DNA of 41,838 nucleotides, from the IMG/VR virus record IMGVR_UViG_3300033565_000009, positions 1 through 41,838 of that record, one strand, 5' to 3'. How positions within the stretch are numbered: the first letter of the stretch is position 1; each line of letters begins with the position of its first letter. Shown piece by piece: positions 14,371 through 22,033 of the stretch. The notes below the pieces were generated by a model. That model did no database searches, was not told the DNA's origin, and saw only the letters and a program-made list of their open reading frames with translations. The position numbers and the translations under genes were made by a program. The stretch comes from a virus (lineage: Duplodnaviria; Caudoviricetes).

Positions 14371-14464
14371 ATGTCTTTAAAAATTAATTTTTCGGGACAG
14401 GCAATTTAATTTCCGCACAGCATATATTGTGGTAAACCACATCAACTGAATGGAGGTATACCAC

Positions 14465-15511
14465 ATGGATCCATTAACGTTATTTTGCGCTGGGGCCACT
14501 CTCTGGACCGCCTTACACTTCATACCTGGCCGGACCAAATTGAATCAGGATGAACTTATCTTAAAGACTTGGGAGCAAACAGGAACCACCAACAAAGAAT
14601 GTCTGTTGCCGGTTAAAAAGAAAGGTGCTTGGTTCTTGCCGGCTGGTCTCTCACCCCGGGATATTGAAAAGACAATTCCGGCTTTAGCCTATCAACTGAA
14701 TGCCCATATAGAGATGGAAACACGGGGCAAGGCGGTACTGCTCCACGTACATCCCGGCCAGCTGCCACGTAAAGTACCATATACCCTCCAGGATCTTAGC
14801 AGATGCAAACTTGGCCTGGTCATGGGTCATACCTGGACGGAGGCATGCCTGACCTTTGACCTAAATGATAGTAATCCATACATTTTGACAGCCGGCGGTG
14901 TAGGGATGGGTAAATCCAACTGGCTTAATCTTGTCCTCAGGCAGATCAACGACAATTACACCCCTGACCAGGTGCAATACTTTTTAATTGATCTCAAACT
15001 AGGAGTAGAACTTGGACAATGGGCTGATTCACCTATGTGTGCAGGTACGTGCTGGGATCCGTCTACTGATCAGCTTCCGGCCATGCTTGGTTATCTGACC
15101 CGGGAAGTACGTAGGAGGATGAAGCTATTTAAAAAGCACGGTGTTTATAAGGTGGATGAATATAACCGACTTGATGTTAAGCAATTACCCTATTTGCTCC
15201 TCGTGGTGGATGAGTATGCGGAACTGAATCGTGATAAAGATGCTGAAGATAAATTGCAATCCTTGCTTCAGATCGGGCGCGCTGCAGGGCTTAGAGTTAT
15301 AATGTCTACCCAACGCCCAACGCACGACAATATCAACACTAGTATAAAAGGATTGATACCAACCAGATTATGTTTTAGCGTTGCTGACCGAGTAAATAGT
15401 GATGTCGTATTAGATCAATCTGGAGCTGAAGACTTGGGCGGAATTCCAGGGCGTGCTTTGCTTTTATCTGGGGCACGGCTGCGCGAAGTGCAAGTCATGA
15501 TCGCTTCTTAA
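14465..15511 (+). CDS. FtsK/SpoIIIE-family ATPase with N-terminal membrane anchor
   Basis: Walker A GGVGMGKS, IDLK, Walker B LLLVVDEY, GRAAG, TQRP; SD GGAGG at 14452. Confidence 0.9.
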   Translation: MDPLTLFCAGATLWTALHFIPGRTKLNQDELILKTWEQTGTTNKECLLPVKKKGAWFLPAGLSPRDIEKTIPALAYQLNAHIEMETRGKAVLLHVHPGQLPRKVPYTLQDLSRCKLGLVMGHTWTEACLTFDLNDSNPYILTAGGVGMGKSNWLNLVLRQINDNYTPDQVQYFLIDLKLGVELGQWADSPMCAGTCWDPSTDQLPAMLGYLTREVRRRMKLFKKHGVYKVDEYNRLDVKQLPYLLLVVDEYAELNRDKDAEDKLQSLLQIGRAAGLRVIMSTQRPTHDNINTSIKGLIPTRLCFSVADRVNSDVVLDQSGAEDLGGIPGRALLLSGARLREVQVMIAS

Positions 15512-15630
15512 TCATCAGCGATCCTTCCTTATTGGGGTTTTTTATTAATGGATTTATCGGTCTTTGGGCCTGTACACCTGTATATTACTGGCTATATGGT
15601 TTGCCAGTAGAAAGATATGGAGGGATATAC

Positions 15631-16239
15631 GTGGAGATCAGAGATCAGAGAGTACTGGAAGGGATAGAAAAGCATAGGTACCTGAGAGCGGACCAGGTTG
15701 CGGAATTGTATTTCCGAACTATTAAAAACAGCGATCAGAGAAAAAAGAAAGCAGCTGCCAGGCTCTTGGTGCTATACCGGTCAAAACTTGTGCAGCGCAC
15801 CAGGTACCCAGGGGATCCTTTTATTTATTTTGCCCGGGGGAATAAATACAGCCATAAACTGCAGCACTACCTTACCATCACGGATGTGCTGCTTCAGATC
15901 CTGGACCTAATACCTGCCAGTTCAAAAGTTGAGTATGAGGTTGAATACTCCCTGGGAAGCGGTATCATTGCCGACCTGGTGATCAGATACAGCAATCCAT
16001 TTCGGCAAGAGAAAAAGACGTATTATATTGAGATTGAGCTGGACAGTTCTGGCAGTATCATTGAGAAGCTGCGGAAGTATGAAGAAATTGAAATCGAGGA
16101 CAGCACAGTGGTAGTAATCGCAAAGCACCGATACACCATAGAAAAAATTCAATCCACTTTATTCACGGTGCCGATCCGCGCTATCGACATACGAGACATT
16201 CCCGGAGGATGGAATTCTGATGGAAGCAATTTGCTTTAA
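15631..16239 (+). CDS. Replication-relaxation (Replic_Relax) family protein
   Basis: Winged-helix-like N-terminus, H in LQHYL, IADL..IEIE nuclease-like motif; GTG start after GGAGG; follows FtsK. Confidence 0.75.
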   Translation: MEIRDQRVLEGIEKHRYLRADQVAELYFRTIKNSDQRKKKAAARLLVLYRSKLVQRTRYPGDPFIYFARGNKYSHKLQHYLTITDVLLQILDLIPASSKVEYEVEYSLGSGIIADLVIRYSNPFRQEKKTYYIEIELDSSGSIIEKLRKYEEIEIEDSTVVVIAKHRYTIEKIQSTLFTVPIRAIDIRDIPGGWNSDGSNLL

Positions 16240-17867: not shown

Positions 17868-18155
17868 CTAATTAATCGAAAGCTTTTCTACACCTTTAAA
17901 AAGATCGTGAACAAAGTTTGCACCCCGGCTGATCAGAACGCCAGTTAATATTTGTCCAATAATCGGATACATTATGGTCAACCCCAAGGCAGCGCAGAGA
18001 TCAACTCCTGTTGCTACAGCCACAACCACACCAATAATTAAAGCTCCAATTCTATCTGGATTCAGCTTGCCTTTGTCCCAAATCGGCTTGAAAGTTTCCC
18101 AGATTGCCTCCGCTAAGATTGCGGCGATTATGATAACCGTAATACCAGTTGCCAT
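17868..18155 (-). CDS. Putative holin
   Basis: Small multi-TM protein directly after the endolysin; ILTG..ISRGANFVHD motif; SD GGAGGT. Confidence 0.7.
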   Translation of the reverse strand: MATGITVIIIAAILAEAIWETFKPIWDKGKLNPDRIGALIIGVVVAVATGVDLCAALGLTIMYPIIGQILTGVLISRGANFVHDLFKGVEKLSIN

Positions 18156-18156
18156 A

Positions 18157-18921
18157 CTATTTACCTCCTTTGATGATAACAGTTGAAGTAGGTTTATCCC
18201 ACTCAACACTCATACCGGCATTTCTGAGCGATACAGCAGGTATAAAAGTGGTATCCTTGCCATCGACGTTCAAAATAACAGCATTATCAAGAGGGGATCC
18301 ATTTAGAGTTGTTTTGACTTCGGGCATTTCAATTCCTAACTTCATTTCTTCTGCCACTTCCTTTCTTGTAAACAGCCAGTAAGAAGGGTTTCTATTGGCT
18401 GTATCCATCGTCAATACAGAAATATCACAAATACAGTTATTGCCCTGCATTTTTACTTTGCCGGTACGGCCTGGCTTTTGATATTTACCCTGATAATAAC
18501 CAGGGTCAAGAACAATAACCTTTTCATCTGCCGAAAGTCCAGCAACGACAATGAAATGTCCTCCATCGCTGAACACACCCATATACCCAGGACGATTACC
18601 ACCAACATTAGCAATGGCCATTCCCCCCTTGCGGAGATGATCCAGTAGGATGCTCTCATTATTGGTTGTTTTAAAGTTCAAATCGTAGTCTTTGCCGATT
18701 TTTTCAGCAAGAATATTCATATCAGTACCTCCTGACACACGAGCCTTGACCTTGATCGCATAAGCGGCCATGGCTACCGGATCAATCGTTTTACCTGACA
18801 TATTACTAACGACCATAGCCATACATGTTGGTCCGCAGCCACTACTCTTCACGGTTGCCTTTTCATAACTAGGTGCCGGATAAAGCACATTCCCATAGTT
18901 GTTTTGATTAAAAACGATCAA
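18157..18921 (-). CDS. Putative endolysin: C39-like cysteine peptidase plus copper-amine-oxidase-N-like binding domain
   Basis: SGCGPT (Cys), GGHFIV (His), LDP (Asp); C-terminal TFIP....G..VEWD; flanked by holin-like genes. Confidence 0.75.
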   Translation of the reverse strand: MIVFNQNNYGNVLYPAPSYEKATVKSSGCGPTCMAMVVSNMSGKTIDPVAMAAYAIKVKARVSGGTDMNILAEKIGKDYDLNFKTTNNESILLDHLRKGGMAIANVGGNRPGYMGVFSDGGHFIVVAGLSADEKVIVLDPGYYQGKYQKPGRTGKVKMQGNNCICDISVLTMDTANRNPSYWLFTRKEVAEEMKLGIEMPEVKTTLNGSPLDNAVILNVDGKDTTFIPAVSLRNAGMSVEWDKPTSTVIIKGGK

Positions 18922-18933
18922 TTCAACTCCCCC

Positions 18934-19203
18934 TTATAACGGGTTGACCTCTGCCGGTTTCTCATCTTCTATTTCCTTACACATAGGCTTATCTGGCCAG
19001 GTATTATTTTTACTAAGATTTTCAAACAAGGATTTGAGAGCATAAATTAATGTGACTGTCAGAATTTCCACGACGATTGTTTTTGATAGGGTTTCGGCAA
19101 TTTTAATTTTATTCATGAAAGCCAAGGCATAGGTAAGATACACCCAAACAGTGGCATGAAAAATCAGCCAGGCAACGATTAGTTTTGAAAATTCCTTTTT
19201 CAA
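18934..19203 (-). CDS. Two-TM lysis cassette protein (holin-like)
   Basis: KKEFSK followed by two hydrophobic helices. Confidence 0.65.
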   Translation of the reverse strand: MKKEFSKLIVAWLIFHATVWVYLTYALAFMNKIKIAETLSKTIVVEILTVTLIYALKSLFENLSKNNTWPDKPMCKEIEDEKPAEVNPL

Positions 19204-19215
19204 TGGATCACACCC

Positions 19216-19503
19216 TTAAACTGTTTGAGAAATGCGCCGCAAATAATCGTTGTATTTTATCTCAACCTCTTTTGCCCAGCACATTGCCTCTTCCACATCG
19301 CCATTTGTTTTTTGGTTAAGTACCGCCTTTGCTGTTACCTTACTTAATTTAAGTCCAGCTTGGGACATTTCCATTTGAATTAGAGCTCCTTCATTGCGTA
19401 AATCATTAACGCGTTTTTCTTTACGCTGGTGAACCCCGATATAAGCAACACCAATAGCCCCAATAGCAGAAATTCCAGCGGAAACAATACCTGTCAAATC
19501 CAC
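19216..19503 (-). CDS. Single-TM lysis cassette protein (holin/XhlA-like)
   Basis: N-terminal TM plus helical tail; first gene of the lysis cassette. Confidence 0.65.
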   Translation of the reverse strand: MDLTGIVSAGISAIGAIGVAYIGVHQRKEKRVNDLRNEGALIQMEMSQAGLKLSKVTAKAVLNQKTNGDVEEAMCWAKEVEIKYNDYLRRISQTV

Positions 19504-19548
19504 TCCCCATCACTCCCCAACAAATATTAAATATGGTAAACTTACTTC

Positions 19549-19601
19549 GCAGGCGTAAAAAGTGTGCTCGCACTTTTCCTATTCCCCAACAGGTTGCCTG
19601 C
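19549..19601 (+). ncRNA. Putative three-way-junction antisense RNA opposite the lysis cassette leader
   Basis: P1 GCAGGC/GCCTGC, P2 AAAAGTG/CACTTTT, P3 CCT/AGG with loop ATTCCCCAAC; extended -10 TGgTAAACT at 19534-19542. Confidence 0.55.
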
Positions 19602-19615
19602 ACCTTACCCCATAT

Positions 19616-19643
19616 AAAAAGCCGCCCATCTTTGAGCGGCTTT
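19616..19643 (-). terminator. Intrinsic terminator after the tyrosine recombinase (probably bidirectional)
   Basis: AGCCGCTCA-AAGA-TGGGCGGCT followed by TTTT. Confidence 0.8.
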
Positions 19644-19647
19644 AACC

Positions 19648-20487
19648 TTAGAAATACCTCGTATAAATTTCTTTCCTCCGTGGCCCTGATAGCTGAGCGT
19701 ACAGCATTGTTGTCTCTAGTTTTTGGTGCCCAAGTAAAGTTTGAATCCCTTCCATCGGAGCCCCGTTATTTAAAAGGTGCGTAGCATATGAATGCCGTAG
19801 CTTGTGTGGATAGACATTCACCGGTACTTCAGACCTCCTGGCAACCCGCTTAATAACATATCTTAACTGGTCAATGCCCATCCGGTGCGGTTTCCGCTCA
19901 GTAACGAATAAAGCGATATCAGTATCTTTCCTTTTAGACAAATACTTTTTGAGCCAGATCGCTGCCTTGATGCTGAAATACACTTCCCTTTCCTTATTAC
20001 CCTTACCCAGTACGATACATGACCGATTATCCCAGTCAATAGCATTCCTGTTAAGTCGATGTATCTCTCCGATCCGGCAGCCGGTTGTGTACATAAATTC
20101 AATCAGAGCATGCTCCAATGGAGTTATGCATCCTTCTCTGAGTAATTCTGTATCTTCTTCACTGAGCGCTTTTGGAACACGTTGCCCGAGCTTTGGTTCT
20201 CGTAACTTTGCAGCCGGGTTCCTGGGACAATAACCTTCATCAGTTGCCCAACGAAAAAAGGCTCGAATGAAACGAATTCGTCCACCCAAGCTGGCAGGTT
20301 TAAGATGAGCGCACTTCTCAATAAGATAGCTCTTGAGATCTACCAGATTGATCTCTTCAATATCTGTCTCCCCAAAATGCCTGATCAGTAGATTAATTTG
20401 TACCCGGTATAACCTTAAAGTGGCTTGAGAATACCCCTCAATGGTTTTGTCGGCAACATAGAGCTGCCATGCTTCACTAAGTAGCAT
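19648..20487 (-). CDS. XerD-like tyrosine recombinase adjacent to the cassette array
   Basis: Core-binding N-terminal domain, TGCRIGE, GKGNKER, HKLRHSYATH, LLGH, TT.LY. Confidence 0.95.
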   Translation of the reverse strand: MLLSEAWQLYVADKTIEGYSQATLRLYRVQINLLIRHFGETDIEEINLVDLKSYLIEKCAHLKPASLGGRIRFIRAFFRWATDEGYCPRNPAAKLREPKLGQRVPKALSEEDTELLREGCITPLEHALIEFMYTTGCRIGEIHRLNRNAIDWDNRSCIVLGKGNKEREVYFSIKAAIWLKKYLSKRKDTDIALFVTERKPHRMGIDQLRYVIKRVARRSEVPVNVYPHKLRHSYATHLLNNGAPMEGIQTLLGHQKLETTMLYAQLSGPRRKEIYTRYF

Positions 20488-20529
20488 GATATGATACCTC
20501 CCGCAAGATATTTTTGTTTCCCGCAGTAG

Positions 20530-20603
20530 ATGTGTATAACAGGCTGCACCTGCGGGGGTGCTTTTCGATCAGGTAGCTAATCCGACCTAGCCTGCTTACA
20601 CAT
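20530..20603 (-). ncRNA. Structured three-way-junction leader RNA of the recombinase
   Basis: P1 AGCAGGCT/AGCCTGTT, P2 GGTCGG/CTGATC, P3 GCACC/GGTGC with loop CCCGCA complementary to two downstream TGCGGG sites. Confidence 0.6.
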
Positions 20604-20604
20604 T

Positions 20605-20633
20605 ACCATATCATTCCAATTAGGACAAGTCAA
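20605..20633 (-). promoter_or_regulatory. SigA-type promoter of the recombinase
   Basis: TTGACT-17-TATGGT with extended -10 TG. Confidence 0.65.
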
Positions 20634-20635
20634 TC

Positions 20636-20663
20636 TTCAAGTAACGCTATTCCGTTGACATAA
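20636..20663 (-). repeat. Candidate recombination site 3 (11-6-11)
   Basis: TTATGTCAACG-GAATAG-CGTTACTTGAA. Confidence 0.75.
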
Positions 20664-20711
20664 TTTAACAAAATACGCAAATATTTGACATAACGTATAC
20701 AGAAATATACG

Positions 20712-20912
20712 TCAGTCCATCTCATCCTTGGTAATACCGAACTCTTTGATAAGTTCTTTTATAACCAGGTCAAGGGCTTGCATCTGTCCCAGGAGATTAT
20801 CTTTCATGCCGTCAAAGTCTGGATCGTTGATTTCGTTCTTCAGCATTTGCCTTTTCCAGACATACCGCTTGATTATGTCTATGATTTTTCCTCTCCTGAA
20901 TGTCTCTGCCAT
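20712..20912 (-). CDS. Conserved cassette protein, copy B (66 aa)
   Basis: SD GAGGTGA before MAETF; paralogue of 21305-21505. Confidence 0.8.
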   Translation of the reverse strand: MAETFRRGKIIDIIKRYVWKRQMLKNEINDPDFDGMKDNLLGQMQALDLVIKELIKEFGITKDEMD

Positions 20913-20982
20913 CCTGATCACCTCGTTGGTTTATATACGTGATCAGAAAGGATTTTCCTTTATTATGCCGAGGTTATTGTAA

Positions 20983-21165: not shown

Positions 21166-21228
21166 ATTTCCACCTCCTCAGATGTTATTCTGCTAAAGTA
21201 TATTCACCGTATACAAATGTATGCGTTA

Positions 21229-21256
21229 TGCAAGTAACGCTATTCCGTTGACATAA
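21229..21256 (-). repeat. Candidate recombination site 2 (11-6-11)
   Basis: TTATGTCAACG-GAATAG-CGTTACTTGCA. Confidence 0.75.
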
Positions 21257-21304
21257 TTTAACAAAATACGTAAATATTTGACAAAACGTATACAGAAATA
21301 TACG

Positions 21305-21505
21305 TCAGTCCAGTTCATCTTTGGTAATACCGAACTCTTTGACAAGCTCTTTTATAACTAGGTCAAGGGCTTGCATTTGGCCCAGGAGATTATCTTTCAT
21401 ACCATCGAAGTCTGGATCGTTGATCTCGTTCTTAAGCATTTGCCGTTTCCAGACATACCGTTTGATTATGTCTATGATTTTTCCTCTCCTGAATGTCTCT
21501 GCCAT
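21305..21505 (-). CDS. Conserved cassette protein, copy A (66 aa)
   Basis: 64/66 aa identical to copy B. Confidence 0.8.
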   Translation of the reverse strand: MAETFRRGKIIDIIKRYVWKRQMLKNEINDPDFDGMKDNLLGQMQALDLVIKELVKEFGITKDELD

Positions 21506-21520
21506 CCCGATCACCTCATG

Positions 21521-21925: not shown

Positions 21926-22005
21926 TCTTGCAAAATCACTCCCCTCCATGTTTATCCAAAGCCTTTTTAAGTATCGAAATATTATTGTATGCTTTCGTAT
22001 ACATA

Positions 22006-22033
22006 TTCAAGTTACGCTATTCCGTTAGCTAAA
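22006..22033 (-). repeat. Candidate recombination site 1 (11-6-11), overlapping the upstream gene's stop codon
   Basis: TTTAGCTAACG-GAATAG-CGTAACTTGAA. Confidence 0.75.

Follow-up and report, generated by a model that had tools for sequence, protein, structure and literature searches.

The timing of lysis in phages is usually explained by late promoters together with holin and antiholin proteins. Among the closest described RNA systems, the C4 antisense RNA of phages P1 and P7 is described as having three stems and a variable specificity loop that covers a ribosome binding site (RBS), with pairs of loop and target that are specific to each phage (PMC5320573). The CI RNA of the satellite phage P4 is reported to be processed from the transcript that it controls, and to terminate transcription after pairing with two sites (PMC4825925). 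The same source describes SprA1AS of Staphylococcus aureus, an RNA from the opposite strand that occludes in trans the RBS of a cytolytic peptide, and in phage P22 the sar RNA is described as controlling a phage gene by antisense pairing (PMC2629481). The present analysis concerns a small RNA element in the 41,838-nt viral sequence IMGVR_UViG_3300033565_000009 (Duplodnaviria; Caudoviricetes), the whole of which was analysed and is called the window below. This 41.8-kb genome is that of a temperate Bacillota-type phage, in which genes for terminase, portal, capsid and a serine integrase were identified. The element lies between a minus-strand gene for a XerD-like tyrosine recombinase and four minus-strand lysis-module genes, head-to-head with the first of these.

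Four things are read directly from the sequences: the motif, the complementarity of one arm to the neighbouring gene, the position at a lysis module, and a target that varies between phages together with the arm. As judged from the sequences, the element is real and conserved, and would belong with the phage antisense RNAs that are guided by a loop, in this case towards a lysis module. We suggest that this RNA blocks translation of the first lysis-module gene by occluding its RBS, a reading to which we assign a probability of about 0.68; that an RNA from the plus strand acts in some way is highly probable.

Structure of the element

An extended -10 promoter-like motif, TGGTAAACT, lies at 19534-19542 on the plus strand and predicts a transcription start at about 19549. 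As the preliminary description of this DNA had proposed, this is the first base of stem P1: GCAGGC begins at 19549, 7 nt past the -10 hexamer. The three-way-junction core covers 53 nt (19549-19601, plus strand), and on this strand the parts follow in the order -10 motif, GCAGGC, P2, C-rich P3, GCCTGC. P1 is formed by 19549-19554 and 19596-19601 and P2 by 19558-19565 and 19570-19577, leaving an open P3 arm at 19578-19593. The plus-strand core fold has a z-score of -2.31, and 0 of 200 shuffled sequences were as stable. P3 is unpaired in the centroid structure and forms a stem of 2-3 bp in the minimum free energy structure; the full P3 stem is seen on the minus strand. The terminator-like hairpin of the recombinase gene (19616-19643, minus strand), with U5 on the minus strand and only U3 on the plus strand, is a possible 3' boundary of the predicted small RNA. 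A plus-strand open reading frame (ORF) at 19533-19784 was rejected as a coding gene, as no Shine-Dalgarno (SD) sequence lies ahead of it.

Predicted pairing with the lysis-gene RBS

The recognition arm P3, taken as 19576-19593 on the plus strand, contains a 9-nt seed at 19583-19591. This word, TCCCCAACA, has exactly two copies in the whole window when both strands are searched, at 19583 and at 19514. The latter copy (19514-19522) marks the main target on the minus strand, namely the 5' flank and SD of the first lysis-module gene, while a second G-rich block (19504-19509, minus strand), where TCCCCA recurs, abuts the GTG start codon. The preliminary description had placed all of these words correctly, and had rightly remarked that the 19514 copy sits in the -35 position of the element itself (19514-19519 with a 17-nt spacer). 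Its proposal that the loop is complementary to both SDs of the lysis mRNA holds in part: the predicted pairing of 17 nt reaches both G-rich blocks, the 5' part of P3 pairing with 19504-19509, but only the 19514 copy stands at SD spacing. The duplex formed by the P3 18-mer with the lysis leader ends at the GTG start and is longer than previously described.

The 9-nt repeat is modest evidence by itself: when the 70 nt upstream were shuffled 3000 times, a repeat of this length was reached 69 times. Among 2062 sites on both strands of the genome, no non-self site pairs better with the P3 18-mer than the lysis RBS, at -23.0 kcal/mol as against -19.3 kcal/mol for the next, and opening the seed in the window RNA costs 1.7 kcal/mol. 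With opening costs included, the window RNA pairs with its cognate leader at -14.2 kcal/mol, and with the leaders of the other loci described below at -6.3 kcal/mol or weaker. The RBSs of the downstream lysis genes themselves lie outside the 12 best predicted P3 sites in the window.

Relatives in the divergent layout

Three of the scans covered 17, 26 and 48 of 64 parts, so that the counts are lower bounds. A first pattern consisted of the -10 motif and P1 only, with no term for a target, and gave 63 viral matches, 52 of them distinct. Fifteen of the 52 were judged to be family members by fold and context (two duplicates were dropped). Eleven of these are leaders, treated in the next section, and four (L222, L211, L226 and L219) have no downstream target; here the P3 word is repeated upstream, at the translation start region of the divergent gene. 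A fifth locus, L505, came from a second pattern and was picked among 98 distinct matches by its upstream match.

Covariation of loop and SD across phages had been proposed earlier as a check, and it is found at all five other loci, where P3 words of 7-11 nt equal the RBS word of the same phage. The covarying word measures 9 nt in the window, 7 in L222, 8 in L505, 8 in L211, 9 in L226 and 11 in L219, lengths that, for the last five, were reached in 27, 35, 14, 3 and 3 of 3000 shuffles, respectively. The P2 arm, used as a control, did no better than chance at any of the six loci (163-1000 of 1000 shuffles). A second recognition loop in P2 was rejected, since P2 matches the target leader at chance level in 6/6 loci. 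The two copies were likewise rejected as a DNA operator pair, because their spacing varies from 64 to 117 nt and one copy always lies within P3.

All five other loci are at the head of a lysis module, with a gene for holin_4_1, an amidase or an M15, S8 or C1 peptidase. The modules combine holin_4_1 with an amidase, or coiled-coil small membrane proteins with a C1 peptidase and amidase, with S8 and M15, with a peptidoglycan-binding protein and M15, or with amidase_3, and their first genes fall into four unrelated kinds. P2 stems differ in sequence between the loci yet still pair. The sixth position of the -10 motif, which the pattern left free, is T in 15/15 members as compared with 13/37 of the other matches. 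A promoter-free pattern returned 16 matches, 12 of them with TGnTAnnnT; the rest were two antirepressor leaders (L621, L622) and two sequences inside coding regions. The window, L222 (equal to L567) and L505 form a close subtype, in which 27 of 62 columns are invariant, 17 of those being fixed by the search pattern.

An exact 24-nt pattern matched 0 viral contigs, blastn against 50,697 annotated phages gave only chance matches of 20-27 nt, and the close-subtype pattern was found in 0 of 125 genomes of one class. A wider pattern occurred in 20 of 401 genomes of the phylum, at 23 loci including a new leader-type locus (L651); no divergent type was seen among these, 6 of the 23 having been inspected by fold and the leader model having been run on 20. 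L565, which shares P1 and lies near lysis-like genes, was excluded for want of a promoter motif and an upstream match. A sense junction with a different P1 was noted at L009:2345-2420, behind a recombinase and before a lysis-like gene; its loop matches downstream and it scores 18.4 bits on the leader model, and it was left uncounted. In one genome (G247) an identical promoter and long GCAGGC stem occur at three places (L650, L665, L667), perhaps as the end of a mobile element.

A sister element in the recombinase leader

A sister three-way junction is found at 20535-20599 on the minus strand, in sense before the recombinase gene, within a leader at 20490-20633 that has its promoter at 20633-20605. 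It has the same P1 sequence and TGGTAnnnT motif as the divergent element. Downstream of it, 20520-20526 and the SD at 20500-20505 are both complementary to its P3 loop, and loop and sites of this type covary in about 20 relatives, including some before longer integrases. In an alignment of 19 leaders, compensatory changes occur in 11 of 18 pairs and in 6 of 6 in P2, a figure inflated by related sequences. The window element, like the Bacillota GCAGGC group, has TGGTAnnnT 3-9 nt before a GCAGGC/GCCTGC stem that closes two arms.

In the leader layout the loop and its downstream sites form inverted repeats, and in the divergent layout the loop and its upstream site form direct repeats. Either way, the loop on the promoter strand is complementary to the neighbouring mRNA, which argues for an antisense role; neither a fixed protein site nor cis pairing can explain both layouts.

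When metagenomes were scanned with an alignment of the recombinase, the matches were generic XerD genes. The same scaffold stands before an AntA/AntB antirepressor gene in L621 and L622 (701-761), without the Bacillota promoter motif. At many other loci with recombinase homologues (L013, L015, L018, L022, L027-L031 and others) the 190 nt before the recombinase lack the RNA leader and show, by eye, a short divergent ORF start and operator-like repeated words. This suggests that protein and RNA control of the recombinase may be exchangeable.

Proposed mechanism and alternative explanations

In the proposed mechanism, the extended -10 would serve as a host-type promoter for a short plus-strand RNA, probably in the lysogen and in early infection. 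This RNA would fold into a three-way junction with its third arm open, and the open arm, by pairing with the first lysis gene at its SD and start region, would block translation of that gene. Leaky transcripts, e.g. read-through from the recombinase cassette, would be silenced, whilst strong late transcription may titrate the RNA and run against its promoter. The net role would be that of a leak filter or threshold that keeps lysis genes untranslated until late infection; downstream lysis genes would be affected only via translational coupling or polarity. If correct, a small RNA on the first lysis-module RBS adds a translational gate, one that can be tested by swaps because five natural guide/target pairs exist.

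Several observations weigh against RBS occlusion by a plus-strand RNA. The -35 at 19514-19519 is poor (3/6 as compared with TTGACA), a consensus promoter scan did not list the promoter at 19534-19542, and just three U follow the hairpin at 19616-19643 on the plus strand. The preliminary description had cautioned that P3 pairs better on the minus strand, and indeed the mRNA strand folds into a full, closed three-way junction that is the more stable (-19.9 vs -15.9 kcal/mol). L505 also folds better on the mRNA strand (-20.2 vs -18.6 kcal/mol) and has a plain -10 without canonical TG spacing, and G-U counts leave the strand undecided. Plain duplex energy favours the cognate pair in just 1 of 6 rows. 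When opening costs are included the cognate pair is best for the window, L222, L505 (narrowly) and L211, and two of the six pairs fail: L226 prefers non-cognate targets, and the seed of L219 is buried (12.2 kcal/mol, net -0.2). In the same table L222 and L505 cross-react. The target of L219 overlaps the only nearby start codon found and has no spaced SD, and the upstream match by which L505 was picked is also reached by 3 unrelated matches of 98. L211 and L226 are relatives of each other, so that the five loci represent four lineages, or five counting the window. A model built from 19 leader-type sequences misses the divergent element of the window on both strands at E<=10; it scores L211 at 25.4 and L226 at 18.4, with L219 (14.2) and L222 (11.7) in the noise. 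Kinship between the layouts is thus inferred from the shared P1, the promoter motif, the loop logic and the intermediates L211 and L226. The 95-aa target protein was not recognised as a holin in Pfam, NCBIfam, PHROG and Atlas comparisons. The element precedes homologues of the target gene in 0 of 31 loci (two with <250 nt of upstream sequence), and thus would be accessory and not required.

The strand preference of the fold bears on a different explanation, that the functional form is the leader of the minus-strand mRNA, a cis three-way junction that shows a G-rich RBS decoy to a protein or to ribosomes. The better minus-strand fold of the window and L505 would fit such a leader, as would an out-of-frame GTG that follows the decoy in the window (ORF 19421-19603). 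However, loop and RBS are identical on this mRNA and so cannot pair in cis, and around the locus the complement of the 7-mer does not occur on that strand. The word also varies between phages, unlike a fixed protein site, and the upstream start codon is absent in 5/5 other loci; a conserved upstream ORF from the decoy SD was rejected, being present in 1 of 6. Since, in addition, the conserved -10 points the opposite way and L211 and L226 match the catalogued int-alpA RNA on the promoter strand (27.9 and 34.8 bits), a cis-acting leader appears improbable. An element without present function, left over from an inverted leader-type element with a repeat that arose by local duplication, would account for the sporadic occurrence (0/31 homologue loci), the divergence from the leader model and the neighbouring recombinase cassette. 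In L166 the homologous gene is preceded by a similar terminator hairpin next to a G-rich run, and the element is missing, which also accords with a relic. Yet position and orientation are the same before four unrelated first lysis genes, P2 still pairs, the -10 is intact, and none of the other five loci has a tyrosine recombinase adjoining the element, and we would be surprised if it were a mere remnant.

It is also conceivable that the RNA is made but acts on the transcript, pairing with its own complement or with the RBS to cause termination or cleavage as in P4 CI, or that its promoter interferes with read-through. A late or read-through mRNA must carry, shortly before the RBS, a complement to all 53 nt, and the P4 CI RNA is described as acting by termination after pairing at two sites (PMC4825925). 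The accessibility of this self copy on the mRNA differs between loci. In L222 it opens more easily than the copy at the RBS (2.6 vs 4.5 kcal/mol), as action on the transcript would have it; in the window and L505 the opposite is seen, the self copy being closed in a hairpin (5.8 and 5.9 kcal/mol) and the RBS copy more open (3.7 and 3.2 kcal/mol). In the latter two, owing to an asymmetry of A-C and G-U, the seed is open in the small RNA while its complement in the mRNA is closed, so that the RNA would be directed to the RBS; this does not apply to L222. Moreover, a perfect complement needs no covarying copy at the RBS, yet such a copy is kept in 6/6 loci, and action at the transcript level is judged unlikely.

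RBS occlusion may be part of a wider scheme, although this is a tentative and rather doubtful extension. An int-alpA-like scaffold with its own promoter and an exchangeable guide arm might be a portable, programmable translational silencer in Bacillota phages, which in sense would limit recombinases and antirepressors and when flipped would set an RNA threshold for lysis. If so, lysis timing and lysogen protection would include a layer upstream of the holin clock, with phage-specific guide/RBS pairs.

Lysis module and neighbouring genes

The first lysis-module gene (19216-19503, minus strand), the predicted target, starts with GTG at 19503, in a reading frame common to its homologues. It encodes a 95-aa protein with a hydrophobic N-terminus that has no Pfam or NCBIfam matches; its PHROG, phrog_9428, is of unknown function and its Atlas name is hypothetical. 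In 8 of the 9 loci scanned, homologues are followed by genes for an amidase, a CHAP protein or a peptidase. The remaining genes of the module, all on the minus strand, encode an 89-aa hydrophobic protein that is probably holin-like (18934-19203; phrog_27228, function unknown), an endolysin-like protein (18157-18921) and a holin-like membrane protein (17868-18179), whose third Atlas match is "Holin family protein" (0.92; an automatic name). The endolysin-like protein has a Peptidase_C39_2 domain and a C-terminal domain in common with an amidase endolysin (L639; E 5e-11). FtsK/SpoIIIE and replication-relaxation genes lie at 14450-16239 on the plus strand, between the integrase and the lysis module.

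The XerD-like recombinase gene (19648-20487, minus strand) is convergent with the small RNA. Just upstream of its promoter, three palindromic sites in direct orientation (22003-22026, 21226-21249 and 20633-20656), with inverted arms of 5-6 nt and a conserved 6-nt spacer, bound two small gene cassettes. A 287-nt direct duplication (94%; 20638-20924 and 21231-21517) carries, in duplicate, a 69-aa gene that belongs to no known family; each copy ends at one of the palindromic sites. The site is also found in L002, L006, L007, L009, L014, L166 and L172 and precedes the recombinase in relatives; in L166 and L172 it is kept before the lysis module, with no recombinase within 2.5 kb. The site resembles the core site in an integron-like array of cassettes.

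Comparison with known RNAs

No Rfam family matched at its gathering score anywhere in the window. Weak matches over 19300-20800, apart from that of int-alpA (RF02996) to the sister copy, were dismissed as terminator or chance matches. The int-alpA motif, reportedly due to Weinberg et al. 2017 (the main text of PMC5737381 does not mention it), is likewise a three-way junction, similar in size and with a P3 loop rich in C. It is the nearest catalogued fold, reached by relatives but not by the divergent element of the window, which gives no match to the model at E<=10. With a cut-off of 35.8 bits, the model scores 35.9 for the leader-type L246, the only one of 18 loci to pass, 35.5 for another, 34.8 for L226, 27.9 for L211 and 20.3 for the window sister leader. 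The CUAG of the model (P1-P2 step and P2 start) and CGAAAAGC at its P2-P3 junction are present in L211 and L226 and absent from the window, L222 and L505. Judging by the family name, int-alpA would lie in sense upstream of an integrase or regulator gene, as the sister copy does; the divergent element, unlike int-alpA, is oriented away from its predicted target gene and would act on a lysis module. The occurrence of both layouts in one genome would give int-alpA-like RNAs a concrete, testable function.

Literature searches for antisense or small RNAs connected with holin or lysis genes found no such RNA by title or abstract start, most subscription journals being outside their coverage, and papers on a xerDC RNA were likewise not found. 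SprA1AS and sar are functional analogues, neither being described in the passages drawn on here as a three-way junction aimed at a lysis module. Like P4 CI, the element would be a small phage RNA that pairs with nearby sites, and in the sense-leader sister type, as in CI, there are two such sites; unlike CI, the divergent element is on the opposite strand and its site is an RBS. The term "C4-like", used in the preliminary description, is apt for the logic, in which a fold predicted to have three arms would present a variable loop to an RBS, but not for family membership, as there is no match to C4 (RF01695; cut-off 45 bits) at E<=10. As in C4, a loop complementary to the RBS covaries with its target, here in 6/6 divergent loci. 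C4, however, has two recognition loops, a' and b', and is cut from its target transcript by RNase P, whereas the divergent element, found in phages of Bacillota, has a single recognition arm and a promoter of its own on the opposite strand, from which transcription is predicted to begin at P1.
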